DNA of 64,000 nt from Bacteroidota bacterium (lineage in GTDB: Bacteria; Bacteroidota; Bacteroidia; NS11-12g; UBA955): assembly GCA_040386935.1 (NCBI GenBank), contig JAZKEQ010000029.1, positions 21,431 to 85,430 of the forward strand. Direction: 5' to 3'. The notes under the pieces are model-generated. The model worked only from the letters and a program-made list of their open reading frames with translations. It was not told where the DNA came from and did not search any database. A program made the position numbers and the translations under genes. Below are positions 2,768-62,312 of the stretch, one piece after another. Every line of letters starts with the position of its first letter. Position 1 is the stretch's first letter.

Positions 2768-3691
2768 TTATTTTAAATAATAACGTTCTATCAATTCCTT
2801 TTCTGCTGTAAAATGTTCAATACTAATCAGGCAGTGTTTGGTATCGTGTTGAAATACATAAACTGAATGATCCTTGCTATCGGTAATGGATGCAAAAGTG
2901 GTATTGTATTCATTGGCTGTATCGGTGTAGGTAATGTCGTTGTAATAAACTGTAGTACCTTTTCTGTAATAATAATAGCGTGTCAAACGATTGTGAGAAT
3001 TGTACTCATAATTTTTTTGAAGCTCAGGCGGTATTTCACCAGCGAAAGTATAGGTATTGTTTTTGAGTGGAATGCCTGGGTATAAAAGTTTTGGCGCAGG
3101 TAGTTCATGTAAATCAGGGCAGGTAGGTGAGTTGCTCCAGAAATAAGTAGTATCTGTTCTTTTAGTTGTTGCACTGTAGTGGAATAAAGGTATCCAATGG
3201 CGCTTCATACTCCACATCATCTCGTTGTGATTGAAGTCGCTCACAAAATGATAGCTGTAGTTTGTTCTGGTATCCCATAACAAGGATTTATTGCGCAAAC
3301 TGTTGAGATGGTCCCTGATAACAGCAAATTCATAAAATCTGGTTTGAGCTGAATCAGCTGCTTTTAATCCATCTATTAATTCAATACTGTCGCCTATTGT
3401 TTGATAATGCCCTGCGATAATTCTGAAAGTTTTTTTAAAGCGTTTATACCCTTTTCCGGGTGTGTAAATTTCTATTTTTTCTTTCTTTGTAAGCGTAAAG
3501 GTTTTGTCTTTATTCAAAGTCAATTCCATCAGCGTATCCAGTCGTCTGTAAGCGCTGTCTGTGTTGTCGTAATACCCTTCAGGGTAATGCGTCCATGCGG
3601 CATAGTATTTTGCATCAATGCCTTGGGCATTATTCTTAAAAGCGATTAAGCCAAGGAATGCGATACAAAAAAATAACTTTTTAAGGTACAT
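2768..3691 (-). CDS. Hypothetical secreted protein or lipoprotein (~307 aa) with no recognisable domain. The start was moved to the Met in front of the signal peptide (MYLKKLFFCIAFLGLIAF).
   Basis: Long ORF with a signal peptide. It is Tyr/Thr-rich. It is packed into a co-directional gene set with gaps of 6 to 70 bp. Confidence 0.5.
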   Translation of the reverse strand: MYLKKLFFCIAFLGLIAFKNNAQGIDAKYYAAWTHYPEGYYDNTDSAYRRLDTLMELTLNKDKTFTLTKKEKIEIYTPGKGYKRFKKTFRIIAGHYQTIGDSIELIDGLKAADSAQTRFYEFAVIRDHLNSLRNKSLLWDTRTNYSYHFVSDFNHNEMMWSMKRHWIPLFHYSATTKRTDTTYFWSNSPTCPDLHELPAPKLLYPGIPLKNNTYTFAGEIPPELQKNYEYNSHNRLTRYYYYRKGTTVYYNDITYTDTANEYNTTFASITDSKDHSVYVFQHDTKHCLISIEHFTAEKELIERYYLK

Positions 3692-3761
3692 TGTTTTTTC
3701 AAATGTATAGGCAGGGGAGGATAAAACCAAATGGTGCCCTGTAAAAGGGAATTTTAGACAA

Positions 3762-8034: not shown

Positions 8035-9288
8035 ATGAATAAAAGATTATTAACCCTATTCACCTTCTGTTTTTTATTAATCACCTGCGTTTGTGCACAA
8101 GTGCCACAAGGTATGAAGTATCAAGCCGTAGCACGCAATAAATCAGGTGCTGTATTGCAACATCATAAAGTAGGATTGCGTTTTACCATTCGCGATGGGA
8201 GTATCAATGGATCTATCGTTTATAGCGAAGCACAAACCGACTCAACGAATGAATTTGGATTGTTTACCGTAGTTATAGGAAATGGTACGCCACAAGTTGG
8301 CAATTTCAATACAATCGCCTGGGGCAGCGGTTCAAAATTTTTGCAAATAGAATTAGATACCAACGGAGGAACGAATTACACCAATTTAGGGGGCTCACAA
8401 TTAATGAGTGTGCCCTATGCGCTATCTGCAGAAAAGGTAACCAACCCTCAGTATCAAACCCTTAAAATAAGCAATGATACCCTCTTTCTTACCAACGGTG
8501 GATTTGTAAAATTGCCCTCAGCAGCATTGTTGGGTGGAGTTTCCATGCCAAAGCTTACCACTGCTGCGGCTACACAGGTTACCAGCAATACGGCCATTGT
8601 TAAAGCCGCACTTTCAACACCAAGCAGTAACATCGTAGAATGGGGTATTTGTTACGATACCAAACCCAATCCTACCGTTAGCGACCTAAAGTTTGCGTGT
8701 ACTGCCGGTAATGCTTTTACTTTGCATTTAAGTGGCGACAGTGCTTACCTGAAGTCGGGGACGGTGTATTATGCCAGAGCTTATGCCATTACTGAAAATA
8801 ATATACATGCCTATGGCAACGAAATTAATTTTAAAACACTTACTGTTGGGCAAACAGGCACTGCAGGTGGCCGGGTTATTTTCGACAAAGGGTTTTACTC
8901 CAATGGCTGGCGTTATATTGAAAGTGATACCAATATGATTCCCGACCATTGGGGGTGCTGGAATACTTTGGTTGGCAAAACCAGTGATTCACTAGGAGCT
9001 GGCAAAGGCAATACCGATTCTATCTTAACAGTATGTCCCTATGCCAATGCCGCTTTGGGGTGTAGCAATTTTGTGTCGGGTTCAAAAAGCGATTGGTTTT
9101 TACCTTCCAAAGAAGAGGCCATGGCTTACATCAATTGGGGGGTATATTCACCCGGCAATATTTTGTGGACCTCATCAGAAATAAGCAGCACACAAGTTTG
9201 GGTTTATGATATTAGCACAGGTAAGTTAATACCCTACAACAAATCAAGCAGCGTGTTTTCATATTATACACCTATAAGGCGTTATTAG
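8035..9288 (+). CDS. Secreted protein with a C-terminal DUF1566 (Lcl C-terminal / Fibrobacter succinogenes major paralogous) domain.
   Basis: Signal peptide (LFTFCFLLITCVCAQ). The C-terminus (SDWFLPSKEEAMAYINWG...LWTSSEISSTQVWVYDISTGK) matches the DUF1566 signature. Confidence 0.55.
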   Translation: MNKRLLTLFTFCFLLITCVCAQVPQGMKYQAVARNKSGAVLQHHKVGLRFTIRDGSINGSIVYSEAQTDSTNEFGLFTVVIGNGTPQVGNFNTIAWGSGSKFLQIELDTNGGTNYTNLGGSQLMSVPYALSAEKVTNPQYQTLKISNDTLFLTNGGFVKLPSAALLGGVSMPKLTTAAATQVTSNTAIVKAALSTPSSNIVEWGICYDTKPNPTVSDLKFACTAGNAFTLHLSGDSAYLKSGTVYYARAYAITENNIHAYGNEINFKTLTVGQTGTAGGRVIFDKGFYSNGWRYIESDTNMIPDHWGCWNTLVGKTSDSLGAGKGNTDSILTVCPYANAALGCSNFVSGSKSDWFLPSKEEAMAYINWGVYSPGNILWTSSEISSTQVWVYDISTGKLIPYNKSSSVFSYYTPIRRY

Positions 9289-10185: not shown

Positions 10186-13100
10186 TTACCCCTTCCATTC
10201 AGGTAATCTGCCGGGGGTGTAAGGCAGTTTCAGTAGTTCCATTTTGCGCTCAAGAGTTTCGAGCAGGGTTTTTACTTCTAACACATCGCTATAGAGTGGT
10301 GTAAATTCTGCTTTCAAAGTGCTAAGGCGTTCTCTGTAAGTGGTGGTAGTACTTTCAGTAGTGCTCCACAGATTGCCTACTATGCCCTCAATAGTGCCTG
10401 CAAGGCCCGGGAGGGTTTCAAACTCGCGTGAGTAAAGGTTGTGGTCACCCACTAATTTTATGCCTATCTGGTACAGTTTTTCTTCTATTACTGCAATGTC
10501 TTTTAACAGTGTAAGATCATTGGCTTGCTGTGCACCGCGTTTCATGTAATTCATTCTGTAGGCCATTTCGTTGCAATAGCTGTTCACACCATTCACCACA
10601 CGTCTGAATTCTGCCAGCTCGGTGTTAAACGCCTGGTTGTTGTTCAAGCCTGTTTCAAACAATGATTTTAATACAAAGGATTGGGCAGGTGCCAATGTAG
10701 TAGCTTCGTTATTTCTAATCAGTTTTAAGGTAACTGTGTAAGTACCCGGTATGCATAGAGGGCCTTTGTCTTCACCTTCATAAGGATTGTTAGGGTCGGG
10801 GCTGTAAAAGGTAACAGGGCTGGTGCGTTCCATGCGGCCATCCCATAGCAGGCGGCTCATGCCTTTGGTAGCCGGTTGGCGCAGTTGGCGTACGATGTTG
10901 CCTTTGTCATCGGCTATTACAGCCAGTATAAATGTTTCGGCTTGTCGGTCTTCTATGCGCATGGAATCCTGTGGCGGATAAAAGTCGTTCAATTGTTTTT
11001 CTTCACGTTCTTTTCTCAGGTCTTTTAAGCTCTTATAATCATCCTTAATGTAATAAGAAATAACAGCACCTATGGCAGGATTATCGGCCGTATAAAAACT
11101 TTCGCCCTGAAACGATTTGCCTTTATGACCCAATGGTGTTGAAGGAATAAATACCAAGCCATCTTTGATAGGGAATATGGTAGCAGCTTGTGTCTTCATA
11201 GCACTTTCGAGTTGCGCATATTTTTGCAATGGGCTGTAATCATCTACAATATAAAAACCACGACCGAAGGTGGCCAGTACCAAATCATTTTCACGCGCTT
11301 GTATCACTATTTCTTTGATGCAAGTGTTGGGTAAACCGCCACTCATTTTGGTCCAGTTTTTACCGCCATTTACTGATACAAATACACCAAAATCAGTACC
11401 TGCAAATAGCAGGTCTTTGGTAGTGTGATCTTCAGTAATGCACTGAGCAGAACCGCGCGCAGGCAAGTCGGATTGTATGGTCTGCCAGGTTTTGCCCTTG
11501 TCTGTAGTTCTTAAAATATAAGGTTTAAAATCACCATTGCGGTGATTGTTAAAAATAGCATAAGCAATGTTTTCATCGTGTTGAGATGCAGTAATATTTT
11601 GCACCAATACTTGATTAGGTACACCTGCAAATGTTTCTGATTTGGTCCATGTTTTACCGCCATCAGTGGTTACTTGTATCAGGCCATCGTCAGTGCCTGC
11701 ATACAGCAGTTGGCTGTTCTTTGGCGATTCAGCAAATGCAGTGATGTTGCCATAAATACTGGTGGATTGATTTTTAGCAACGGCATCCATGCTCCATATT
11801 TTATCCATCACCATTAATTTATTTCTATCAATACCACGTGTTAAATCAGGACTGATAATTTCCCATGTATTGCCGCGATCGGTACTCTTGAATAATTTCT
11901 GTGAAGCAAAATACAAAGTGGTATTGCTGTGATAGCTCAGGTGCAAAGGTGCATCCCAGTTGAAACGGTAAGCCTTTTCGCCTTTAGGTTCCTGTGGTTT
12001 AATATCGAGTGCTTCACCGGTTTTTTTGTTGTAGCGCACCAGGCCACCGTATTGCCATTGCGAGTACACAATGTTAGGGTCTTTGCTATCAACAACAGTT
12101 TTAAAACCATCGCCACCTACGGTTACAAACCAGTCGTAATTGTGTATGCCATTAGCGCTAATGGTGCGCGAAGGGCCACCTAATGTATTGTTGTCTTGCG
12201 TGCCGCCATACACATTGTAAAAAGGTAGAGCATTGTCAACCGTTACTCTGTAAAATTGTGTCACAGGCAGGTTGGCTTTGTATTGCCAGGTAGCTGCAGC
12301 ATCCCAGCTTTCATATAAGCCGCCATCGCATCCCATCAGATAGTGACGTGTGTTTTTAGGGTCTACCCATATCACGTGGTTGTCTACGTGTTTGTTTTTT
12401 TCGCCTAATCCGTTAAAAGTTTTACCGCCATCGTTGCTCACCATGGCCCATGTGTTCATGGAATATATTCTGTCGACATTTACAGGGTCGGCAAATATTT
12501 CGTTGTAGTAATTTCCGGCAGTGGCATAGCCTGAGCGTTTCTCCCAACTGGCACCTCTGTTTTTAGAAAGGTATAAACCTTGTGACTCGGCACCGGCTTC
12601 GATAATGGCATATATATAATCGGGATTAACAGGTGATACCGCCATGCCAATACGACCGATATCGCCTTTCGGTAAACCGTTCTCCAACTTCTGCCAGGTA
12701 GTGCCATGGTCGGTACTGCGATAAATGGCTGACTCGGGTCCACCACCTACATAGGTCCATTCATGTCGTCTGCGTTGGTGTGCTGATGCGTATAAAATAT
12801 TGTGATGGCGAGGGTCCATTTGTACCTCGTTAAAACCGGTATTGTCGCTTACAAATAATATGCGGTTCCAGGTAGCGCCACCATCAGTAGTTTTGTAAAT
12901 ACCGCGTTCACCTCCGGCACTCCACAGGGGGCCATAAGCGGCAACATAAACAGTGTTGGAATTTTTAGGATCTACTACTATCATACCGATGTGTTCACTG
13001 TTTTTCAGTCCCATGTTTTTCCATGTAGCACCTCCGTCTTCCGATTTGTAAACACCATCGCCATAACCTACACTGCGTTGGTTGTTGTTTTCACCGGTAC

Positions 13101-16494: not shown

Positions 16495-17491
16495 GAAGGT
16501 CATCATATCGCTTTTGCTGTTGTGCTTGTTTTCTGCAAAGGGACAAGACCCAAGGCGTAACATTCGCTATTACGATAGTCTGGCTTTAGACAGCGCCACC
16601 AGTTTTTCGCAGTATTACTATCAGATGCGTTCTGATATGATTGAGCAAAAATTGATGGAGGAGCTGAACAGAATGGCTGATACCCTGAGCACAGATTCCA
16701 ATCTTTACAGGGATACAATTAAAAAAGATACTTTGGTGATTCAGAAATTTGTGGGGTATAACCGCACGATTTACAAGAATTCAAAGGCCAATATCAGGAA
16801 ATCTTTGCAATCGTCCAGTAACCCACCCGTTCGCCCTAATCTGGATAATTGGTTTGTGCTGGCCTGGTGTTTCTTCGTAATTGTTCTCATCATTATTTTC
16901 AAATATTCCTATCCCTTGCAATACCATTTGATAAACCGGGCATGGTTCAGTAGCTTGAGTTTTCGCGAATTTTACGACACACAAACAGATATTTTCAAGG
17001 GCAGTAAATTCTTCGCATGGTTTGTTATCAGCCAGATTTTTTCCGTTGGGGTATTTATCCTGATAAGATTCAGCTTTAAATCAATTGTGTACTCAGATAT
17101 CGTTCTTGCGCTGATGGTGTCAGGTGGAATTATATTAATTTTCATTTTAAATCAATGGTTAAAATTTATATTTGCGTATGCTTTCCAGCAACCGAGTTTA
17201 AGTAAGGATTACGCCATCATTTTTCGTATCAATGCATACAGCATAGCCTTGATTTTGCTGCCTGTTTTGCTGTTTATCTATTTTACAAATCAAATTGGTT
17301 TATTGCATTCTGTCGGACTTATTTTAATGGTTTTTTTGCTGTTGATTTACGGCATCAGTTTATTAAGATTCTCATTTTCAGGTCTTTTTGCAGAAACTCA
17401 GTCAAGTATATTTTTAATTTTGTATCTTTGTGCATTCGAAGTTTTACCAATATTAGTTTTAGTGAAATCATTTAATAGTTTTTTGTTCTAA
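16454..17491 (+). CDS. Polytopic membrane protein, DUF4271-like. The track start is GTG 16454, with an alternative TTG at 16472.
   Basis: It has an N-terminal signal/anchor, then a soluble segment, then about six hydrophobic helices. A HemD-like gene follows immediately, which is a conserved Bacteroidota pairing. Confidence 0.5.
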   Translation: MQEKYILESAAIFKKVIISLLLLCLFSAKGQDPRRNIRYYDSLALDSATSFSQYYYQMRSDMIEQKLMEELNRMADTLSTDSNLYRDTIKKDTLVIQKFVGYNRTIYKNSKANIRKSLQSSSNPPVRPNLDNWFVLAWCFFVIVLIIIFKYSYPLQYHLINRAWFSSLSFREFYDTQTDIFKGSKFFAWFVISQIFSVGVFILIRFSFKSIVYSDIVLALMVSGGIILIFILNQWLKFIFAYAFQQPSLSKDYAIIFRINAYSIALILLPVLLFIYFTNQIGLLHSVGLILMVFLLLIYGISLLRFSFSGLFAETQSSIFLILYLCAFEVLPILVLVKSFNSFLF

Positions 17492-18250
17492 ATGGAGAAA
17501 GAGGCAAAAGTAAAGACGATCTTAGTATCGCAAAATAAACCGGAAAGCGGTAAGTCAATATTTGACGACATCGCTACCAAATTAAAGTTGAAAGTCGATT
17601 ATCGATCTTTCATACAGGTAGACCCGATTCCGGGGAAGGATTTGAGGAGAAAAAAACTCAATATACTGGCACATACGGCCATTATTTTTAACGCTAAAAA
17701 CGCTGTAGATCATTTCTTCAGAGTGGTAGAGGAGTTGAGAATAGAGCTGCCAATTGACATGAAGTATTTTTGTATGAATGAAGGCATTGGTCTTTACATT
17801 CAGAAATACACCATCATGCGCAAACGCAAAGTGTTTTTCCCGAAGACAAACCTGGAAGCAGATTTCTTCAACATGATTTTAAATCACAAGACAGAGAAAT
17901 ACCTGTTCCCGTGTTCGGATATCAGAAAATCGACCATCCCTGATTTTTTCGCAAAACATAAATTGGAGTTTGTAGAAAGTGTGATGTACAAAACAGTGTC
18001 AGCAGATTTGAGCGACCTTGAAAATGTGTTCTACGATATCATCGTGTTCTTTAGCCCGGCCGATATCAAATCACTGTTTGAAAACTTCCCTGAATTCAAG
18101 CAAAACCAAACGCGTTTGGCGGCATTTGGAGAAAGCACACACAGAGCAATAGCAGAACACAGTCTGGTTTGCAATATTCCTGCACCTACCAAAGAATTTC
18201 CATCAATTGTATCGGCAATGGAAGCTTATATTAAAAGAGTGAATGCTTAG
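17492..18250 (+). CDS. Uroporphyrinogen-III synthase (HemD)-like protein.
   Basis: It is 252 aa with a HemD-like two-lobe pattern. It starts 1 nt after the stop of the DUF4271 gene. Confidence 0.55.
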   Translation: MEKEAKVKTILVSQNKPESGKSIFDDIATKLKLKVDYRSFIQVDPIPGKDLRRKKLNILAHTAIIFNAKNAVDHFFRVVEELRIELPIDMKYFCMNEGIGLYIQKYTIMRKRKVFFPKTNLEADFFNMILNHKTEKYLFPCSDIRKSTIPDFFAKHKLEFVESVMYKTVSADLSDLENVFYDIIVFFSPADIKSLFENFPEFKQNQTRLAAFGESTHRAIAEHSLVCNIPAPTKEFPSIVSAMEAYIKRVNA

Positions 18251-50310: not shown

Positions 50311-52473
50311 TTGCTTATGCGTGTCTTTTTTATTAAATTTGCGTTTACAGTGAAAAGTATTGGCCTATTATTGATTTCGCTATGTTGTCTGCAGTCTTTG
50401 TTTGCAGCTCGACCTTCTGTACACGCTTCAAATTTTACAGCATCAAATATTACTTGTAATTCGGTACTGTTGAATTGGGTGTATGGGGATGGTGCAGCCC
50501 GAATAATTGTAGCCAGAGAAGGATCTGCTCCATCGTTCATACCTTCCGATATGACGGCTTACAGTGCCGATAATCGTTTTGGAAAATCAACGGACATGGG
50601 TTCCGGTAATTTTATTGTTTACAATGCAGGTGGAACAAACTTTATCAGAATTGATAGTTTGAAAACAGGCAGAACGTATTATTTCACGATTTACGAGCAC
50701 GATAATAATGCAGCAAATACCCTTTACTACACGACCTCTCCGCCAACTGTTAGTGTTACCACACATTCTATAACCCTCGATTTCAATATTTTTTACAGAG
50801 ACAGTTGTCAGATTAGGAATTTATATGAATTTGATAATAACTCAACTTCTACCATTCCCGGCATCAGTTATAGCTACGATTATGGCGATTCTTATACAGG
50901 ACCGGCTCCTACAACAGGTTTGGTAAGTCACAGTTATACAATATCAGGTAATATACAGGCACGACTCATTGCAACGCCTTCATTGGGGTGTGTGAATACG
51001 ATGGCAAAGCCTGCAAGGGTTTATAGGAAAAAGAATGCCTATATTGATTTTTCAAAATTCAAGGACAGTATTCAGTGTATTGACGGCAACTATTTTGTCG
51101 TTGGACCAACACCATATCCTTCGCAATTGCCCGTTTTTTATCGCTACAATTGGTCGCATGGAGATGGAACATTTTCTGATTTTGGTGTAATGAAGAAAAC
51201 GTATAACAAAAGCGGAAGGTTTACTGTTCAGGTTGAAATCAAAACATTTACACTAAAAGGAGATACGATAGGTTGTGATGATACTTTGAGATTTGATTTG
51301 GTTGTTTTACCTAATCCTACAAAAGGCGCTATTTACGATACAGTGAAATGCAAAAAATACAATCTCTTTAATTTCACTAATCAAGATAATAATCTCACTT
51401 ATTTCAAATGGTATTTTGGTGATCAGGATTCAAGTGATTTAAAAACAGTAACACATAAGTATGCCGATACAGGTAAATACACAGTAATGCACGTGGCATA
51501 TGCCAGCACAGGGTGTAAGGGAAGGGATACATTCGATATAAGGGTATTGCCTGATGTTAACCCCAACTTCAATGGCCTCGATCCAACTTATTGTACTTCA
51601 AAAAATATTGTGACACTGCTCCCTGATTCAGTAGGAGGTGTATTTGAGGGGTATCAAGTAGATAACCCCGGCTATACTTTTGCGCCTACTACACCAGGAC
51701 AGTATAAGTTGAGTTATATATACAAGACACCGTTCTGTTCCGATACAATGACTAAGGATTTCGAGATTTTTCCAACTCCTGTACCAAGTCTTGGACGCGA
51801 TACGGCTATATGTTCTGATGTGCCATTTACCTTAGATGCTAAAATAGCAGGGAGTTATCTTTGGAGTGACGGATCGACTAACAAAGATTTAACAGTTACT
51901 GGCACCGGCAATTATTGGGTAAAAGTAAGCACTCCTTACTGTTCAGCTTACGATACAGCCTCAGTTGTTTTCTCTACAGAACCCATCATTGATTTTGGGT
52001 TAGATACTTCAGTATGTAAAGGCAATGCACTGACATTAAGAGCAACTAATCCAAAATCCACTTATTTGTGGCAGGATGGAAGTACCGATAGTTTGTATTT
52101 TGTATACAGCCCGGGAAAATATTGGGTGCAGGTAACCAATCCTTGCGGTGTAACAACAGATACGATTTTAGTGTATTTCCAAAGCGATTATTGCGATTTG
52201 TTCATGGCCAATGCATTTTCACCCGACAACGACTTGCTGAATAATGAATTCAAGCCAATGGGGAAAAATATGACCGTGAAATTGTTTCAGATATATAACC
52301 GCTGGGGGCAGTTAATTTTTGAAACAGATAAAGACAATGTCGGTTGGAACGGTCAATACAACGGCAAAGAAGCTCCTCAGGATTTATACCTTTGGAAATT
52401 GTTCTACACCACACCTAACGGCAGGTATATCAAAAAGAGCAATGCCGCTGGTACTGTTCTGTTAATTAGATAA
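50311..52473 (+). CDS. Secreted PKD-repeat protein with a T9SS type B (gliding motility-associated, CHU_C) C-terminal sorting domain. The true start may be GTG 50350.
   Basis: Signal peptide. Repeated PKD-like W/Y-x-F/Y-GD motifs are present (YSYDYGDS, NWSHGDG, KWYFGDQDS). The C-terminus (FMANAFSPDNDLLNNEF...NRWGQLIFET...GWNGQYNGK...LYLWK) matches the type B sorting domain. Confidence 0.7.
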   Translation: MLMRVFFIKFAFTVKSIGLLLISLCCLQSLFAARPSVHASNFTASNITCNSVLLNWVYGDGAARIIVAREGSAPSFIPSDMTAYSADNRFGKSTDMGSGNFIVYNAGGTNFIRIDSLKTGRTYYFTIYEHDNNAANTLYYTTSPPTVSVTTHSITLDFNIFYRDSCQIRNLYEFDNNSTSTIPGISYSYDYGDSYTGPAPTTGLVSHSYTISGNIQARLIATPSLGCVNTMAKPARVYRKKNAYIDFSKFKDSIQCIDGNYFVVGPTPYPSQLPVFYRYNWSHGDGTFSDFGVMKKTYNKSGRFTVQVEIKTFTLKGDTIGCDDTLRFDLVVLPNPTKGAIYDTVKCKKYNLFNFTNQDNNLTYFKWYFGDQDSSDLKTVTHKYADTGKYTVMHVAYASTGCKGRDTFDIRVLPDVNPNFNGLDPTYCTSKNIVTLLPDSVGGVFEGYQVDNPGYTFAPTTPGQYKLSYIYKTPFCSDTMTKDFEIFPTPVPSLGRDTAICSDVPFTLDAKIAGSYLWSDGSTNKDLTVTGTGNYWVKVSTPYCSAYDTASVVFSTEPIIDFGLDTSVCKGNALTLRATNPKSTYLWQDGSTDSLYFVYSPGKYWVQVTNPCGVTTDTILVYFQSDYCDLFMANAFSPDNDLLNNEFKPMGKNMTVKLFQIYNRWGQLIFETDKDNVGWNGQYNGKEAPQDLYLWKLFYTTPNGRYIKKSNAAGTVLLIR

Positions 52474-54684: not shown

Positions 54685-54781
54685 AAATATTTGATATTAA
54701 ATTTTTGTGCGAAATTAAGTGATAATGTTTAAAATTGAATGCTGTAAACATTTAATTTTGTAAAATTTATAAATCAGTTCA

Positions 54782-55252
54782 ATGGACTTTGAAACATACA
54801 ACAATCTGGTAGAATCAACTCTTGGTTTTTTAGGCCTGAATCCCGCAGAGGCAAGAAGTGAAGAAAAAGGCCAATGGCTGATCTTCAATGGCGATACAGA
54901 AATCTATATCGACCTTTGGGAACAAAAACAACAAAGCGCCTGGCTGTATTTTGAAAGTGACCAACCCCTCTATATATTTCAAATAATTTCACCTATTTGT
55001 TATCTGCCAACCATACATATGGAGCAGTTTTATGAAGAATTGCTGCACAATAACCTCAATATGCTCTATGGTTCCTATACCATTAATAAGGAAGAAAATG
55101 TATTGGCAGTGAAATTCCGCAGAATTTGCAATGGTTTGAAACAGGAAGATATCGTTGAAGCGATAGAAAGCATCGGCTATTATTCCGAATCTACCTTCAA
55201 AGCACTCAGCGAACGTTATGATGTGGCCAAAATAGAGGTTGAAGAAAATTAA
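54782..55252 (+). CDS. YbjN-like (T3SS-chaperone-fold) domain protein.
   Basis: It is an acidic, soluble 156 aa protein. The pattern (WLIFNGDTEIYIDLWEQ...LYFESDQPLY...EQFYEELLHNNLNMLYGSYTINKEENVLAVKF) is typical of the YbjN fold. Confidence 0.4.
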   Translation: MDFETYNNLVESTLGFLGLNPAEARSEEKGQWLIFNGDTEIYIDLWEQKQQSAWLYFESDQPLYIFQIISPICYLPTIHMEQFYEELLHNNLNMLYGSYTINKEENVLAVKFRRICNGLKQEDIVEAIESIGYYSESTFKALSERYDVAKIEVEEN

Positions 55253-55329
55253 TTTTTTTTCAGACTTAGGCAACCTCAGGGCACCTTTCTTCTTCTTCTA
55301 ATGGAATAAAGATTCAAAAACTTGTGTAA

Positions 55330-55878
55330 ATGGCGATTTTTAATGCGGAAAAACTCAGTGGTATTGTAAGGCAATGCATTGATAATGACCCAAAAGCACA
55401 AAAACAGTTATTTGACATATTGTCGCCAAAAATGTATGCCATTTGTCTGCGTTATGCCAGACATTCGGATGAGGCCAAAGACATTTTACAGGAAGGATTC
55501 ATCAAAATGTTCAAATATCTTGACCGTTTTGAGGGAAAAGGTTCTTTTGAAGGCTGGGTAAAACGTATTTTTATTAATACAAGTATTGAGTTTTACCGCA
55601 AAGCGCAAAAAGAAGCCGGAAATAATTCACTTGATCAGGCAGAAAATCAACCATTTGATGCTCAGATACTCTCTAATTTAAAAGTAGATGATTTGATGCG
55701 GATAGTGCAAGAACTGCCAACCGGTTACCGCACCGTGTTCAACCTTTTTGTTATAGAAGGATATGGGCACGAGGAAATAGCCCAAATGCTCAGTATTTCA
55801 GAAAATACAAGTAAGAGTCAATTGTTCAAAGCCAGGCAACATTTACAAACGATAATATTAAAAAGAAATTTAAGGTGA
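55330..55878 (+). CDS. ECF-type RNA polymerase sigma factor (sigma-70 region 2 plus region 4).
   Basis: Region 2 is present (LFDILSPKMYAICLRYARHSDEAKDILQEGFIKMF). The region 4 HTH is present (LPTGYRTVFNLFVIEGYGHEEIAQMLSISENTSKSQLFKARQHL). Confidence 0.85.
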   Translation: MAIFNAEKLSGIVRQCIDNDPKAQKQLFDILSPKMYAICLRYARHSDEAKDILQEGFIKMFKYLDRFEGKGSFEGWVKRIFINTSIEFYRKAQKEAGNNSLDQAENQPFDAQILSNLKVDDLMRIVQELPTGYRTVFNLFVIEGYGHEEIAQMLSISENTSKSQLFKARQHLQTIILKRNLR

Positions 55879-56765
55879 AAAATAATATAGACATATCAGA
55901 ATTTGACAAGTTTTTCAAGGATGGCCTTGAAAATGCTATGCAAACGCCTCCTGCAGGTGTTTGGGAGAGTGTGTCAGGTTCATTGACTACATCTGCTGCA
56001 ACTACAACTGCCGCAGTTGTTAAAACAGCTTTATGGCTTAAAGTAGGTGTTGCCATTATTACTACTTCAGCAATTATTCTGGGTACTGTTTATTTAACAG
56101 ATTCAGAAAAAGAAACCATGCCGGCTGTTCAGGTACAGGAAACCCCTGTAAATCCAACAGTAGAAAATAATACACCAACTCCATTGGCTCCAATTGAAAA
56201 TCCTGCCATCACACAAGCAGACCAGCCAGCTGGAACTAATGGGAATAATACATGGATTGATGTTTCTTTCCCTCCAAAGAAGAGTGAAGAACCACAAACC
56301 AACTATAATGAAGTACCGACTGATGCACCTGTAAGTAATCAGCAAACTGACTATAATTCACCTGTTACATTCCCTGCTGATGTTGCTCCGATTTTACCTA
56401 AAGCGGTAGTAAAGAAAAAAGACACCTCAATTTTAAACGGTGTAAGAGATGGAAACGAAGTGGTAGAAAATGATCATATCGTTATTAAAACCTCTGACAG
56501 TGTGCTGATTATTCCAAATGCATTTACACCAAATGGCGATGGCATCAATGATACCTACACGATAGACATAAAAGGGGAAACAAGTGTGAGAATAGTAGTG
56601 TTAGATCGCAATGGCAGTAAGATTTTTGAAACAACAGATAAAACAAAAGGTTGGGATCCAACAATTGACAATTATCCTGTTGGTACCTACTATGTGGTCG
56701 TGTACTATAAGTTCCCAAATTCACCTGAAAATAAGCACAGCCAAACCATCATTTTAAAACGATAA
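55875..56765 (+). CDS. Sigma-coupled single-pass membrane protein. It has an anti-sigma-like cytoplasmic N-terminus, one TM helix and a Pro/Thr-rich linker. Its C-terminus is a T9SS type B (CHU_C) sorting-like domain.
   Basis: Its GTG overlaps the sigma stop (GTGA). The N-terminal motif FDKFFKDGLENAMQTPPAGVWESV is common in Bacteroidota anti-sigma partners. The TM helix is LWLKVGVAIITTSAIILGTVYL. The C-terminus (VLIIPNAFTPNGDGINDTYTI...TKGWDPTIDNYPVGTYYVVVYY) matches the gliding-motility C-terminal domain. Confidence 0.6.
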   Translation: MKNNIDISEFDKFFKDGLENAMQTPPAGVWESVSGSLTTSAATTTAAVVKTALWLKVGVAIITTSAIILGTVYLTDSEKETMPAVQVQETPVNPTVENNTPTPLAPIENPAITQADQPAGTNGNNTWIDVSFPPKKSEEPQTNYNEVPTDAPVSNQQTDYNSPVTFPADVAPILPKAVVKKKDTSILNGVRDGNEVVENDHIVIKTSDSVLIIPNAFTPNGDGINDTYTIDIKGETSVRIVVLDRNGSKIFETTDKTKGWDPTIDNYPVGTYYVVVYYKFPNSPENKHSQTIILKR

Positions 56766-56819
56766 AAAACGACTTGTAAACTTCAATAAATTAATCTAAT
56801 ATAGCAACTTGAAATTATT

Positions 56820-59800
56820 ATGAATATAAAGTATCAAATAAGCAGATCCCTGAAAGCATTCGGCCTAATGGCAGTCTTGCTCTTGGGTGTTTCATCTGTA
56901 AAAGCACAATGTACCATTACCACCTCAGGTCCTCCCTGTGTTAACCAACCAATTCAGTTTTTTTGTAACACAACCGGTGCAAGTAATTACAATTGGGACT
57001 TTAACAGTGAAGGTGCAAACACATCGCTTTGTAACCCCTCTTTTGCATTTAGCACTACAGGAACCAAAACGATAACATTAAGCCTGAAGCTGGCCAATGG
57101 CAGTACCTGTAACGCTACAACTACAATTGTAGTGAAAGGTGCTCCTGTTATTGATTTTGTAAAACTCTCAGATGATACAAGTTGCTTTTTTGGCAACTCG
57201 TTTTGTTTTAGAGATGATACAAAACCGGTAGACAATGGCGGTTGTATCAAATCCATCAAGTATGTGTGGAGTGATGGTGAATTGATTACAGTGTCAGGCA
57301 CAGCACCAACAGGTGTTACAATGCCTAATTCATTTTGTAAATCATTTACCAACCCTGCCGGTGGTACTTACGACTTGTTAATTGAAACTGAAGATTGTAA
57401 CGGTTGTATTTCCCGTAAAACTTTTCTATCTATTTGCGTAGTAAGAGCTTCAATGGGTTTGACGTTCTCATCTCTCAGACCAAAGGCTTGTGATAGTGTA
57501 AAATTAACAGTAACAAATGCTTCTTTAATAGATATTAAAGATATTGACTCATTCCGATGGGATTGGGGTGATAGTAAATTTACTTCAGGTAAAGGCGGAA
57601 CCGGTGCGCCAAATTGGAAAACAACGGTATCTCACATGTTCTATACTCAAGGACCAAATGCAGGTGAGTTCAATACGAAATTAACTGTTTGGTCTAAATT
57701 CGGTTGTAAAGAATCTTTCACATTTTTCTCATCTGCAACCAATTTGAAACTTGATCCTCAAATTATAGCGAGTTTTGATTCGGTGTGTTATGATGATCCT
57801 GTGATTGATTTTACTATTAAAGGCGGAGTGATACCTCAGGGTGTGAGTCCGGTGTTCAACTATGGTGACCCTGATTCAGGGCCGTTGAACATTACTAGAC
57901 AGTGGGTAGGGAATCATAGTTTTACTAAATCAGGACCATTCAAAATTAAATTTACCTATAATCACCCAATATGTGGTAATAGAGAAATATATGACACAAT
58001 TCTGGTAATAGGGCCGGAATCCAAAATTGAAAAAGCGTTCAACTGGTTAGTGGATTCATTGAGATACCAGTGCGTTATTAAAGATACTGTTAAATTTAAA
58101 AACTTCTCTGTATTCTACCACAACGATAGAAAATTCAGAGATGATGACAGTACTTTTGTATTTGGAGACAGCTTATTATACGATGTTAAAAAAGACACCA
58201 TCATTTTAGGCAATCCTACATTCGACAGAAATTACATGGTGTGGTTAAAACCGGGTTTCAATGCTCCATTAACCCACATATTCAATTCTAAATCCGGACA
58301 AACTTCAGTTGATGCGGCTCCTGCCAATCAAAGAGGAAATTCTTGTATATTCAGAGTATGGGATTTTGATGATGATTTTTGTGAAAAATGTACCACTGAT
58401 ACCAAAAACGGTATTAATACAGTTCTCAAAAATTGTAAGTTCTCAAAAGACTCCTTGCCACAACACTGGTATACACCTTGGGATTCCATCTATCAAACAA
58501 GAAACAGTACACGTGCTGCTAATGGTATCAGATACAATAAAGACTCAGGTCTTTGTATTCAAACCAAAATATGGCCGGATGACTCAATGGCAATTATCAG
58601 ATATACCACATTGTATTATGGCAACAACGTATTGGGAAAAAAAGCAAAAGACTCCTTAATATATGCAGGTATCAAAAATAAAGTAATGGTGCCATCATTT
58701 ATTGCCGGACCAGCACGGTGGGATGCGACATCCGAGGCCCCGAGGTTCTATCTAGGGCGAACGGACACCATGTACCTCGACAACAATAATGGTATTACAC
58801 CTAACATGATAAGAGGTCTGCGTTATCAAACCGTACAAATTGGACAATCATTGATCCTTAAATCAAAAACTGATACAGCCTTCTTCAACTATTGGATAGT
58901 AGATGTATTGGATACAATTGCGAATGATCTTGTTAGACCATGGCACAATGTAGTTTCAAGAATGAAAATGCAAGGATATAATGCTACAGATAGTTTAGAT
59001 CCGGCATTACACAGACAGAAATTCTATGAAGGAACTACTGTTAGATGTTTCAACGTTCGCTTGTTCCAGAAAGATATGTGTCACGCTTTAGCTTGCGAAA
59101 ATCAGGCAACAGCTCAATTGGCTTTGATGCCTCCTAGTGCTAAAAAATTAAGAAAAGATGGTATGCAGTGTTTGGGTGGTAGCCAGGATAATTATGGTAT
59201 AACCTTTATTCTGTCTGATACTAAACCGGGCTGTACACGTACTTATGCACAGATAAATTACGATACAGCATTGAGTAAATTTGGATGGGTGGATGCAATA
59301 GGCCCTAACTTGGCTGGTGGTTCAATTGCAACAGGTAATCTACCTCCTGTTAATCCTCCATACTTGGGTTATGACTTAGGCGGACCTGCCCCATCACGTT
59401 TCTCAAAACAATTTACAACTGACGACTTTAAGGATTCACTTACAGGTTATATCAATGTTGGTTTAATCGTAGGTACAGGTATGTGGAGAACTCCAAACGA
59501 CCCTCCTATAGATGACCTGAACTACCCTGCTACTTGTATTGATACTGTTTACTATCCAAAATTCGCTCGTTTCCCTGTATTGGATAACAGATTCAGAATC
59601 ATCAAACCTAAACAAGGTCCTGAGTTTACTAAAATATGCAGAAAAGATACTTTGTGTATGACTTTGATGCCACGTAACAGAAGTTATATTCCTGATGTTG
59701 AAGAGTTAAACTGGAGCTTATCTGCAGCCAACGTTGGTAAATACTTCGATAAGTACTACACAATGCAAGTAAATGAATACTATGAGCGTTTTGCTAAAAA

Positions 59801-62312
59801 CAAAAATAATCCTTCAGATACTAACTTATACGATTACTTACACCACAAGAGCATTTCATATTTTGATGGGAAGAACAGTACTTTAGATAGTCAGGTGATT
59901 CAGGTTGCTAAGATTGTAAAATGGCATACTGAAGCAGATATTACTCCTGTATTCGATCAGATTAAACAAATTTTGATTGCTAGCAATATCGATATTTACG
60001 ATTTAAGTCCTACCCAATTATCTGAAATTATCTGGAACGGTCAAGGCGCATTCGGAAAACCATACACAGGTTCAAGAGGTTGTTTGGATACTACAGGATA
60101 TGGTAAATTCATCAGATTCTATAAAGTAAAAGACTCTAGTGTTATTACACACTTTAGAGATACCAGTTTATTGCCATTGAATAAAGTTGTTGGTTTTGAT
60201 GGTCTAACCTATAATGCTTATTGCTTTGTTCCTCAATATTCCGGTTTTTATTTTGCTAACTTCGGTTTGAGAAGCCGTGCACCTGAGAATTGTGTAATGC
60301 AAACAGGAAGTGCTAAAAAAGTAATTGTTGGTTTCTATGGCAGAATGGATTACACTGATACTATCCTTTGCCACGGAGAAGATGTATCAGCCTACACTGA
60401 ATTCAAATATTTTGATGCATATCCTGAAATCACCAACAGATTACTTGACCCAACTGACTATTGGTACGATAGAAGAAGTGAAGCAGGGAATCAAAATAGA
60501 GAAGGCAGAACAAGATGGGATTTGAGCAAGGACGATGATACTTTAAATCCTCCAAACACTGTATTTGGTCCTTTCCCTTATGGTCAAACAGGTGTTGGTA
60601 CAGGTTCATTCCCTGCTGTACCTCCGGGAGTTGTTACTCACTTAGTTAAATTAGGCGGATTGTCAGTTCCGGGTGCTATCTATTACTTGTCAGATACAGG
60701 TGGATACTACCAAGTGAGAGTGACCACTGCGGATAGCTTGGGTTGTAGAGATACTTTCCCTCAGGATATCTTCGTAACAGCGGCTAACGCATTCTTTAAA
60801 CTGGATCAGAATCGTCCTGAGTGCGCTACTGTAATTGAGTTCTTTGATTCATCATACGTATTCGACCCATGTGTATGGAAATTGAAAGACAAATGCGATT
60901 ACATCACTAAATGGATCATCAACTGGGGTGATAGCAGCAAAAATAAAATCAGTACTTTCAGAAACTTCTTACCACCACAGATTGGTCACGATTATGTAAG
61001 AAACGGTAGATTCAAGGTTACCCTAAGGGTAGAAACTTATCTGGGATGTTGGGATACTTTCTCGCGCATGATTTATATACCTGGTCCGGTACCGTTCTTC
61101 GATACATTTATTCCTCGTAAGTACTGTGTGAACGAACGTGTTGACTTTAGCAACTTAAGTACATACATGAAACAAGATAGCAGTATCTGGTTATGGGACT
61201 TCGGTGATGGATTCTACGACAGTCAGTTCGATACAATCATCCCTGGTAAAAATGATACCATCAGTCATAGATATACCAAACCGGGTAGATATAAAATATT
61301 CCTGAGACAGAACTTTGTACTGAATCTGGGTGGAACTATCAAGAAGTGTTTTGTTACATATCCTGATACACTTTCAGAACAACCAATTTTCTACATCGAT
61401 GTATACCCTTACGATTCTGTTAAACTCAAAATCTCAAGGACCGAAATTTGCGAAAATGACACTGTGGAGCTGATAGGTATGGTTAAACCAACTAATAAAT
61501 ACCAGTACTACAGATGGCACTTTGGGGTAACACCTACAGATACGCTCATCACTCAGGATACTTCATACCTTGATGATAAAGCAAAACGCTATGTAGATAA
61601 AGGCAGATACGTGATCAAGTTTATGGGTGATAGAAATACTGTAAACACAACTGAGAAAGTTTGTCCGGGTGAAGATTCAGTTATTCTGAATGTCGCTAAT
61701 GTGAAAGCTGACTTCGAAATTGATACCACTAAATCTCCGATATTCTGTTTTGAGAATAAATCATTGAACAGTACCAACCACGCATGGAGTCTGTACAACA
61801 AGGAAGACATCATGTTATTGGATCCTGCAGATAGAAAGGTAGTCTTTGACGGAATAACAGGTTCTGAAGCAAATGACCCTAAACCATGCAGAGATTACAG
61901 AGATTCAGTAGGTGAGTATTGGGTATGTCTTGAAGCAATAAATGATATTGGCTGTAGAGATACCACGTGTCGCAAATTAGTAAACAGATTCGAAGCGTCT
62001 ATCCGCCCACCAAACGTGTTCACTCCTGATAATGGTGCGTTCCAAGGTACTGATAAAGAAGGTCTGAAAGGTAACGATGTATTCAACATCGAAATCAAAG
62101 GCGAAGATTTATACGACCTGGTAATATATGACCGTTGGGGTGTGAAAGTATTCGATTCAAAAGATAAAAATGTTGACTGGAACGGAAAAATAAACAATAC
62201 AGGTGCTGAGTGTCCAAATGGTACTTACTACTATATCTTGAACTACAGATATAAAGGTAAAGACAAGAAAGAACCGGTATTGAATGGAACTGTTCAGATC
62301 ATAAGAGGATAA
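56820..62312 (+). CDS. Giant (1830 aa) secreted Cys-rich PKD-repeat protein with a T9SS type B (CHU_C) C-terminal sorting domain. It is a putative surface adhesin.
   Basis: Signal peptide (LMAVLLLGVSSVKAQ). It has multiple WDFGDG-type PKD motifs (NWDFNSEGA, RWDWGDS, WLWDFGDGFYD, INWGDSS) and many cysteines. The C-terminus (PPNVFTPDNGAFQGTDKEGLKGNDVFNI...YDRWGVKVF...DWNGK...TYYYIL) matches the type B sorting domain. Confidence 0.75.
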   Translation: MNIKYQISRSLKAFGLMAVLLLGVSSVKAQCTITTSGPPCVNQPIQFFCNTTGASNYNWDFNSEGANTSLCNPSFAFSTTGTKTITLSLKLANGSTCNATTTIVVKGAPVIDFVKLSDDTSCFFGNSFCFRDDTKPVDNGGCIKSIKYVWSDGELITVSGTAPTGVTMPNSFCKSFTNPAGGTYDLLIETEDCNGCISRKTFLSICVVRASMGLTFSSLRPKACDSVKLTVTNASLIDIKDIDSFRWDWGDSKFTSGKGGTGAPNWKTTVSHMFYTQGPNAGEFNTKLTVWSKFGCKESFTFFSSATNLKLDPQIIASFDSVCYDDPVIDFTIKGGVIPQGVSPVFNYGDPDSGPLNITRQWVGNHSFTKSGPFKIKFTYNHPICGNREIYDTILVIGPESKIEKAFNWLVDSLRYQCVIKDTVKFKNFSVFYHNDRKFRDDDSTFVFGDSLLYDVKKDTIILGNPTFDRNYMVWLKPGFNAPLTHIFNSKSGQTSVDAAPANQRGNSCIFRVWDFDDDFCEKCTTDTKNGINTVLKNCKFSKDSLPQHWYTPWDSIYQTRNSTRAANGIRYNKDSGLCIQTKIWPDDSMAIIRYTTLYYGNNVLGKKAKDSLIYAGIKNKVMVPSFIAGPARWDATSEAPRFYLGRTDTMYLDNNNGITPNMIRGLRYQTVQIGQSLILKSKTDTAFFNYWIVDVLDTIANDLVRPWHNVVSRMKMQGYNATDSLDPALHRQKFYEGTTVRCFNVRLFQKDMCHALACENQATAQLALMPPSAKKLRKDGMQCLGGSQDNYGITFILSDTKPGCTRTYAQINYDTALSKFGWVDAIGPNLAGGSIATGNLPPVNPPYLGYDLGGPAPSRFSKQFTTDDFKDSLTGYINVGLIVGTGMWRTPNDPPIDDLNYPATCIDTVYYPKFARFPVLDNRFRIIKPKQGPEFTKICRKDTLCMTLMPRNRSYIPDVEELNWSLSAANVGKYFDKYYTMQVNEYYERFAKNKNNPSDTNLYDYLHHKSISYFDGKNSTLDSQVIQVAKIVKWHTEADITPVFDQIKQILIASNIDIYDLSPTQLSEIIWNGQGAFGKPYTGSRGCLDTTGYGKFIRFYKVKDSSVITHFRDTSLLPLNKVVGFDGLTYNAYCFVPQYSGFYFANFGLRSRAPENCVMQTGSAKKVIVGFYGRMDYTDTILCHGEDVSAYTEFKYFDAYPEITNRLLDPTDYWYDRRSEAGNQNREGRTRWDLSKDDDTLNPPNTVFGPFPYGQTGVGTGSFPAVPPGVVTHLVKLGGLSVPGAIYYLSDTGGYYQVRVTTADSLGCRDTFPQDIFVTAANAFFKLDQNRPECATVIEFFDSSYVFDPCVWKLKDKCDYITKWIINWGDSSKNKISTFRNFLPPQIGHDYVRNGRFKVTLRVETYLGCWDTFSRMIYIPGPVPFFDTFIPRKYCVNERVDFSNLSTYMKQDSSIWLWDFGDGFYDSQFDTIIPGKNDTISHRYTKPGRYKIFLRQNFVLNLGGTIKKCFVTYPDTLSEQPIFYIDVYPYDSVKLKISRTEICENDTVELIGMVKPTNKYQYYRWHFGVTPTDTLITQDTSYLDDKAKRYVDKGRYVIKFMGDRNTVNTTEKVCPGEDSVILNVANVKADFEIDTTKSPIFCFENKSLNSTNHAWSLYNKEDIMLLDPADRKVVFDGITGSEANDPKPCRDYRDSVGEYWVCLEAINDIGCRDTTCRKLVNRFEASIRPPNVFTPDNGAFQGTDKEGLKGNDVFNIEIKGEDLYDLVIYDRWGVKVFDSKDKNVDWNGKINNTGAECPNGTYYYILNYRYKGKDKKEPVLNGTVQIIRG

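Follow-up and report, generated by a model that had tools for sequence, protein, structure and literature searches.

In a 64 kb stretch of Bacteroidota DNA (contig JAZKEQ010000029.1; the whole stretch is termed the window, and all coordinates are those of the window), a cassette of four genes at 54782-62312 contains a gene for a sigma factor with extracytoplasmic function (ECF), directly followed by the gene for a membrane-anchored partner that ends in a relative of type IX secretion system (T9SS) sorting domains of type B. [quoted passage not shown] A sigma/anti-sigma relationship between the two proteins is very likely, judged from gene order and conservation, and there is about an even chance that the CTD of the partner senses the T9SS type B branch, be it a shuttle, the machine itself or unsecreted cargo. 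Such regulation may be of either sign, and both the docking partner of the CTD and the binding of sigma are putative.

The sigma factor and its membrane-anchored partner

All four open reading frames (ORFs) were read in the sequence at the positions given in the initial annotation. The sigma factor (182 aa; 55330-55878, plus strand) contains sigma-2 and sigma-4 domains only (PF04542, Sigma70_r2, 55.7 bits; PF08281, r4_2, 58.4 bits) and scores 94.7 bits on TIGR02937, whose curated cut-off is 42.9 bits, which identifies it as an ECF (group 4) member of the sigma-70 family. It is related to the closest named subfamily, NF058625 (GFO_1088/PG0214-type), without being a member, because its score of 92.7 bits falls below the cut-off of 130 bits. 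The partner gene begins at a GTG codon (55875-55877) that overlaps the TGA with which the sigma gene ends (55876-55878), and the GTGA overlap reported earlier is thus seen directly at 55875-55878.

The window locus was compared with loci of its relatives, which carry L-numbers, and the informative ones are the window, L001-3, L004, L005-7, L011, L015, L021, L032, L077, L088/89, L090, L092, L093, L094/95, L096/97 and L098/99; this sample is skewed to relatives of the window, and hence fractions of loci are indicative only. A survey of such neighbourhoods had been suggested in the initial annotation, and in 16/16 informative loci an ECF sigma gene of one and the same clade was found directly 5' of the CHU_C partner gene, at a distance of -19 to +6 nt, with mostly overlapping stop and start codons and a usual overlap of 4-20 nt. 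The partner-linked sigma factors match that of the window at E<=8e-35, while unrelated ECF sigma factors of the same loci give matches of 1e-8 to 1e-14 and have other partners. Identities between sigma factors and between partner N-termini correlate with a Spearman coefficient of 0.66 over 15 loci, a value confounded by phylogeny.

The partner (296 aa) is composed of a conserved N-terminus of ~50 aa, one transmembrane helix, a disordered linker of ~133 aa and a CHU_C/T9SS type B domain. The N-terminal module (aa 1-48; 55875-56018, plus strand), a putative sigma-binding segment on the cytoplasmic side, is delimited by conservation and by two short helices, residues 8-19 and 29-38, in an AlphaFold2 model based on an alignment of 140 family sequences (predicted local distance difference test, pLDDT, 73-81), and carries the motif F/I-D-x-L/F-F/L-K/R...L...P-x-G-V-W-E-x-V. 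Residues 1-36 (MKNNxxISEFDxFFKQQLEGASxTPPAGVWESVSSSL), with an invariant W30, form the best-conserved part of the protein outside the CTD. In 142/142 short members checked, a hydrophobic helix starting at aa 40-63 comes after the motif, and none of these members contains a second hydrophobic segment. In the window protein, the single transmembrane helix is VGVAIITTSAIILGTVYLT (aa 57-75; 56043-56099, plus strand), with a hydropathy of 1.9 over 19 aa. Because the residues before the helix are conserved and motif and helix occur together in every member, the GTG start is taken as real and the hydrophobic segment as no signal peptide; being preceded by 40-63 conserved residues and the only segment of its kind, it leaves the partner without a Sec signal peptide. 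A true start downstream of the helix, which would have yielded an ordinary signal peptide and which the initial annotation had named as fatal to its interpretation, is ruled out by this N-terminal conservation. Strict adjacency and translational coupling suggest that the N-terminus binds sigma. On operational grounds the partner resembles an anti-sigma factor, being encoded directly 3' of an ECF sigma factor in 16/16 loci and having one transmembrane helix with a presumed N-in orientation, and no curated anti-sigma domain (ZAS/class I anti-sigma domain, RskA, FecR and others) is recognized in it.

A very improbable explanation is that the partner is an ordinary secreted type B cargo, with a wrongly assigned start or an uncleaved signal anchor, and thus a member of the regulon and not its regulator. 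In public annotation, all members do go by the name 'gliding motility-associated C-terminal domain-containing protein' and by no other, and the CHU_C and TIGR04131 models are both matched above their cut-offs. However, the 36-50 residues before the helix are the best-conserved ones outside the CTD in 142/142 members, the hydrophobic segment always begins 40-63 residues in, the partner and sigma genes overlap at the sigma stop, no passenger domain is present in the short forms, and the CTD is devoid of cargo-invariant motifs. The earlier judgement that the partner is not an ordinary cargo agrees with its conserved cytoplasmic N-terminus, single helix, lack of a signal peptide and dedicated sigma clade, and the annotation of the family can be corrected, since its members are now counted as T9SS cargo or gliding proteins and inflate predicted secretomes.

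The initial homologue set held 8 full-length and several distant sequences, and when 1.84 billion representatives were searched exhaustively with a profile, a threshold of E<=1e-30 gave a family of 429 representative clusters, the best 150 of which are nearly all 278-357 aa long and matched by the profile from end to end. The family thus comprises hundreds of clusters, spread from Bacteroidales to Chitinophagia-like and Flavobacteriia-like lineages. A profile of the N-terminus alone retrieved one 68 aa fragment only from the protein database. In a scan of contigs with the full-length partner alignment, the pattern was taken from the CTD and the matches were mostly ordinary cargo, with L011, L015, L021, L032 and L077 as the only family members from that scan.

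Between helix and CTD lies the disordered linker (56100-56501, plus strand), predicted to be periplasmic, which is hydrophilic, with many E, T, S, K, N and P residues, varies in sequence but is conserved in length, and which is modelled without secondary structure at a pLDDT of about 45-65. Its length over the family has a median of 133 aa and an interquartile range of 127-142, a constraint that is expected of a spacer bridging a fixed distance. The topology of the partner would be N-in/C-out.

Longer variants of the partner, 412-467 aa in length, have the same N-terminus, helix and RWG-less CTD (L096 10198-11601; L098 10154-11506; also cluster representatives of about 412-446 aa). In them, a further stretch of about 150-200 aa with Cys residues is inserted ahead of the CTD, which stays at the extreme C-terminus. 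Mimicry of cargo beyond the CTD was considered for these variants and rejected, since the extra region of the 450-467 aa forms has no significant similarity to the pre-CTD regions of the giant proteins described below.

The partner domain compared with cargo sorting domains

The C-terminal beta-sandwich of the partner (aa 210-296; 56502-56765 including the stop codon, plus strand) is derived from CHU_C/type B CTDs. The profile searches proposed in the initial annotation gave 54.9 bits on PF13585 (CHU_C; cut-off 27) over aa 212-287 of 296; on TIGR04131, which models the T9SS type B sorting domain and has a cut-off of 35, the score at the extreme C-terminus is 44.3 bits. Residues 203-296 are modelled by AlphaFold2 with a pLDDT of 94-97. 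For closer comparison, 142 partner CTDs were aligned with 87 ordinary CHU_C cargo CTDs from the genomes examined. The [RK]WG motif is present in 67/87 cargo CTDs versus 1/142 partner CTDs: at its three positions, cargo has R, W and G at frequencies of 0.94, 0.80 and 0.99, whereas R is found at 0.15 in partners, where W and G both fall short of a majority at their positions. Similarly, the Gly of the terminal strand has a frequency of 0.93 in cargo versus under 0.28 in partners. The window partner has DRNG at the RWG site and ends in ...SQTIILKR, and thus carries only part of the cargo motifs, being without RWG and the last-strand Gly. Other parts of the signature, PN.FTPNGDG.ND.F, W-D-G, G.Y.Y and the terminal L..R, are kept in partners at cargo-like frequency. 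In held-out tests with hidden Markov models, partner and cargo CTDs were told apart correctly in 70/72 and 43/44 cases, with a margin of ~30 bits. Partner CTDs are therefore a discrete subfamily, in which RWG and the terminal Gly have been lost. The giants encoded beside partners all keep RWG and Gly, and the partners are all without the Trp.

It follows that the initial annotation was right in placing the C-terminus of the partner in the type B family, and that its term 'T9SS type B sorting domain' has to give way to 'degenerate, type-B-derived domain', because two cargo-invariant features are lost. Secretion of SprB depends on every one of five conserved motifs, lettered A-E, that lie within the final 100 residues of its CTD, as shown by Paillat et al. 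(PMC12618676). The loss of RWG and of the terminal Gly fits a docking or sensor module better than an export signal, and the sequence features of the CTD make it most likely a degenerate, type-B-derived domain with a non-exported docking or sensor role. The same natural variants, with RWG and terminal Gly lost and the rest kept, separate residues that may serve recognition from those needed for export.

The putative operon promoter and the giant type B protein

The sigma gene is preceded by an ECF-type sequence, GCAACC-N16-CTTCT (55270-55296, plus strand), located 60 nt before the sigma start, which is the putative promoter of the operon. The DNA 5' of the sigma genes cannot be aligned between loci apart from this shared motif, whose consensus is GCAAC(C/T)-N16-C(T/A/G)TC(T/C), a classical ECF-type pair of a -35 AAC and a -10 CGT-like element. 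The pattern has one match in the 64 kb window, at the position given, and hence no second ECF promoter is found before the giant gene. In 2.4 Mb of loci there are 21 matches; nine are located 41-62 nt before a sigma start, covering 9/11 family loci, and the remaining 12 all fall within ORFs. Exact matches were also obtained in L094, L095 and L096, and L077, L092 and L093 have the promoter with one mismatch or a 15 nt spacer. Since an ECF-type promoter precedes the sigma gene, the operon is probably autoregulated.

The last gene of the cassette encodes a secreted, PKD/Cys-rich giant of 1830 aa with a canonical type B CTD (56820-62312, plus strand), as evident from its ORF, domain matches and orthologues. 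Its N-terminus, MNIKYQISRSLKAFGLMAVLLLGVSSVKA-QC, resembles a signal peptide, and RWG and the terminal Gly are present in its CTD. The claim that it ends in the same domain class as the partner holds for CHU_C (PF13585, 53.1 bits versus 27), but not for TIGR04131, on which its 30 bits lie below the cut-off of 35. The gap between partner and giant genes in the window measures 54 nt (56766-56819), not the 55 bp given before, and no terminator is predicted in it. Overall such gaps are 2-85 nt long, for example 2 nt in L088/89, 13 nt in L090 and 41 nt in L015. The giant is very probably co-transcribed with sigma and partner from the autoregulated ECF promoter, and an autoregulated sigma-partner-giant operon is the simplest reading of the locus. 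The proposal that sigma controls the giant finds support at the sequence level in the conserved promoter, the short gaps and the lack of a terminator. The conserved promoter also offers a ready-made reporter. In L004, a short GC hairpin with a T run after it (AGCGGGCT...AGCCCTTTT) is found in the 85 nt spacer between partner and giant (10856-10940) and could serve as an attenuator that separates the giant from the regulator genes.

In 12/17 non-redundant loci the partner gene is directly followed by that of a giant with PKD and CHU_C domains, 1634-2219 aa in length, and the flanking contexts of this arrangement include at least six that are unrelated to each other (the sucD...mnmE type, L004, L011, L015, L090 and L094/95). 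The giants found after the partner in L001, L004, L005, L011, L015, L089, L090, L093, L094/95, L096 and L099 are full-length orthologues with 31-66% identity, and in L077 a CHU_C protein of 711 aa is encoded two genes downstream of the partner. [quoted passage not shown] A scan of 25 window ORFs, those of the cassette and its flanks among them, gave no PorP_SprF Pfam match, in agreement with the earlier remark that no sprF/porP-like gene flanks the giant, which can thus be regarded as an 'orphan' substrate.

Additional cargo genes are present in the loci of some relatives. In L094 (2737-7251, minus strand) and L095 (2741-7309, minus strand), a further type B cargo of ~1500 aa with DUF7948, PKD and CHU_C domains is divergent from the sigma promoter region and may be a second member of the regulon. 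In L096, the gene at 16672-17961, directly after the giant, encodes a protein of 429 aa whose CTD is of type A (Por_Secre_tail).

Candidate signalling routes, precedents and neighbouring genes

In the mechanism proposed here, the two-helix N-terminus of the partner (about 40-50 aa) would hold sigma at the inner membrane, and the linker of ~133 aa would let the C-terminal beta-sandwich reach across the periplasm, where it may dock, without being exported, to a PorP/SprF-like shuttle, to the translocon or ring, or to unsecreted type B cargo. A change in this contact would release sigma, and the freed sigma would transcribe its own operon from the GCAACC-N16-C(T/A/G)TCT promoter, which in most lineages would also drive the synthesis of the orphan giant PKD/type B adhesin.

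Several observations weigh against this mechanism. Five partner N-termini gave no Pfam match at E<=10, and the best matches to PDB sequences, at E>=0.12, are to unrelated proteins; of the 'usual Bacteroidota anti-sigma N-terminus' with one helix claimed initially, conservation and the single helix stand, whereas the attribution to a usual anti-sigma type does not, and binding of sigma by this segment is putative. As to topology, the helix is modelled with low confidence by AlphaFold2, and the counts of K and R at its flanks (1.18 before versus 1.44 after) do not discriminate between orientations. Partner and giant CTDs are 28-39% identical within loci versus 24-43% across loci, and without within-locus co-variation nothing indicates a shared receptor; a shared cognate-receptor signature of the two CTDs was accordingly rejected, as they form separate lineages with no within-locus excess. 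The loss of RWG could equally mean that the domain is no longer related to the T9SS. L021, L032, L091 and L092 have no adjacent giant, and the giant is therefore a frequent and not an obligatory target. Finally, no PorP/SprF gene was found in the vicinity of any of the loci examined, and none is annotated beside the giants of L001, L004, L090, L094-L096 and L099.

Some of these points would also suit a rather improbable alternative with the same sigma/anti-sigma pair, in which the CTD is a beta-sandwich recycled from a type B CTD that senses an unrelated envelope or periplasmic signal without contact to the T9SS. The CTD has given up the two positions that are most invariant in cargo, partner and giant CTDs show no co-variation within a locus, and in L021, L032 and L092 the pair is without a neighbouring type B cargo. 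Foldseek searches with the partner model also retrieved only generic Ig/Fn3 sandwiches, a result consistent with the situation that, to our knowledge, the structure of a type B CTD is yet to be solved. On the other hand, PN.FTPNGDG.ND, WDG and G.Y.Y are kept at cargo-like frequency after deep divergence, and the survival of these other type B positions implies that a shared binding surface is under selection. Linkage to a type B giant in 12/17 loci, and the position of the CTD at the extreme C-terminus even in the long variants, likewise speak against recycling for an unrelated signal.

Single-pass anti-sigma factors of ECF sigma factors are well known from RpoE-RseA and SigW-RsiW, and short two-helix class II domains from CnrY-CnrH. 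As in RpoE-RseA and SigW-RsiW, a group 4 sigma factor is here translationally coupled to a protein with one transmembrane helix between a short cytoplasmic N-terminus and a C-terminal domain outside the cytoplasm, and the promoter is of the autoregulated AAC/CGT type; unlike in these systems, the partner N-terminus lies outside the curated anti-sigma domains, the sensor is derived from a secretion signal, and the operon includes a giant adhesin. In FecA-FecR-FecI, an inner-membrane anti-sigma factor spans the periplasm to an outer-membrane beta-barrel and controls an ECF sigma factor (reviewed in PMC9249621). In contrast to that system, the cassette has no FecR domain and no TonB-dependent transducer, and contact with the outer membrane is hypothetical.

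The PorA protein of Porphyromonas gingivalis has a CTD that binds PorY, a sensor kinase, in the periplasm and switches on PorXY-SigP (PMC12152298; PMC7712824), and PorA tethered to the inner membrane still signals and is not exported (PMC12152298). Both in PorA-PorY/PorX-SigP and in the system proposed here, a T9SS CTD in the periplasm would be the signal and the route would end at an ECF sigma factor. However, PorA carries a type A CTD, is secreted as a protein of its own and acts through a two-component route on T9SS machinery genes, whereas in the cassette a type-B-derived CTD is fused to a putative anti-sigma factor and the visible target is a cargo gene. By analogy, the PorA work may be regarded as the strongest outside support and as the closest, though conceptually partial, precedent.

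Type B cargo and PorP/SprF-like shuttles are exemplified by SprB-SprF, Fjoh_3952-Fjoh_3951 and PG1035-PorP (PMC12618676, PMC9143113). Like such cargo, the partner belongs to the PF13585/TIGR04131 family and keeps most signature positions; unlike it, the partner would be anchored in the inner membrane and has no signal peptide, no passenger (in the short forms), no RWG, no terminal Gly and no adjacent shuttle gene.

The first gene of the cassette encodes a cytoplasmic protein of 156 aa (54782-55252, plus strand) with the fold of type III secretion system (T3SS) class I chaperones and YbjN, as concluded from AlphaFold2 and Foldseek. The model (pLDDT 91.3; predicted template modelling score, pTM, 0.85) matches ExsC, SicP, SigE, SycE, CesT, YbjN and AmyR with TM-scores of 0.6-0.78, which upholds the YbjN-like designation of the initial annotation. 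Pfam matches are weak (YbjN/CesT_Tir_1): the window copy scores 12.8 bits on PF10722 (YbjN), whose cut-off is 22, one orthologue exceeds it with 24.4 bits, and many homologues carry PF10722. Homologues down to 50% identity still have sigma, partner and giant next to them. The gene is present in the sucD-linked lineage and in the distant L004 and absent from L011, L015, L090 and L094/95, and is thus a lineage-specific accessory of the cassette; its product could, speculatively, bind the tail of the anti-sigma factor or sigma in the cytoplasm. The Bacteroidota -7 consensus is TAnnTTTG (PMC9723704), and a match to this housekeeping box, TAATTTTG, is read at 54753-54760 (plus strand), where it may function as the promoter element of the gene; the box is also found before the orthologous gene in L001, L005, L088 and L004. 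The ECF promoter lies between the YbjN-like gene and the sigma gene, and on account of its own TAnnTTTG box the YbjN-like gene is probably expressed independently of the ECF promoter.

In FlgM-sigma28 and in ExsC-ExsE-ExsD-ExsA of P. aeruginosa, a regulator carries or binds a secretion signal and transcription tracks secretion capacity. The 156 aa protein shares its T3SS chaperone fold with ExsC (structure 3kxy, a Foldseek match); the differences are that another secretion system is concerned and that the anti-sigma factor proposed here is membrane-anchored and probably not exported. A more elaborate form of the mechanism, which we regard as doubtful, is a T9SS secretion-status checkpoint: the anti-sigma factor, tethered to the inner membrane, would offer its degenerate CTD across the periplasm to the shuttle or translocon of the type B branch, occupancy of this site, through competition with cargo or capture by an idle machine, would set the release of sigma, and the ExsC/YbjN-fold protein would serve as a partner switch on the anti-sigma N-terminus. 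If such a checkpoint exists, the output of the giant adhesin would be matched to export capacity, in a T9SS counterpart of FlgM-sigma28 or ExsCDE and a one-protein short-circuit of the PorA-PorY-PorX-SigP route.

A stricter FlgM-type scheme, in which engagement of the CTD lets the T9SS pull or thread the linker, the anti-sigma factor is thereby exposed to site-1 and site-2 proteolysis, and sigma is freed only with working type B export, is considered quite unlikely. The contour of a ~133 aa linker, up to roughly 45 nm, could span to the outer membrane, and its conserved length, the cargo-like position of the CTD at the extreme C-terminus, a giant under the same promoter and a T3SS-chaperone/ExsC-fold protein encoded in the cassette would all be in keeping with it. 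However, the family is without RWG and the terminal Gly, while export of SprB needed each conserved type B motif (PMC12618676), PorA tethered to the inner membrane was not transported (PMC12152298), and no protease gene is linked to the cassette.

ECF sigma/anti-sigma signalling as such is known, and a sensor derived from a secretion signal appears to be unprecedented, although an earlier description is possible. In the literature covered, which did not extend to subscription journals, we found no account of an anti-sigma-like protein that carries a type B CTD, and CHU_C or gliding are not mentioned in the accessible text of the ECF classification paper; the view in the initial annotation that no system of this type had been described is hence maintained within this coverage. 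The SM6 regulon of F. psychrophilum, with gldN, porU and an ECF/anti-sigma pair, was considered and set aside, as its anti-sigma factor of about 149 aa is not of the partner family. In the same species, THC0290_1654/1653 comprises an ECF21-type sigma factor and a 302 aa 'putative anti-sigma factor' (PMC9723704), whose size is that of the partner family. If this pair belongs to the family, a cultivable model organism with transcriptome data would be at hand.

Physiologically, the manner in which the production of very large T9SS substrates is matched to secretion capacity is largely obscure in Bacteroidota beyond PorXY-SigP of P. gingivalis, and the understanding of type B CTD recognition is only at its start. 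The family described here represents a compact and genetically simple system, in which a type-B-derived domain would be hard-wired to a transcription factor.

Elsewhere in the window, Pfam gives no match at E<=0.001 for two sizeable ORFs, at 8035-9288 (plus strand, 417 aa) and 2768-3730 (minus strand, 320 aa). Another type B cargo, a protein of 720 aa with PKD and CHU_C domains (50311-52473, plus strand), is encoded 2.3 kb 5' of the cassette; it has no ECF promoter motif before it, keeps RWG and is syntenic in L001 and L088.

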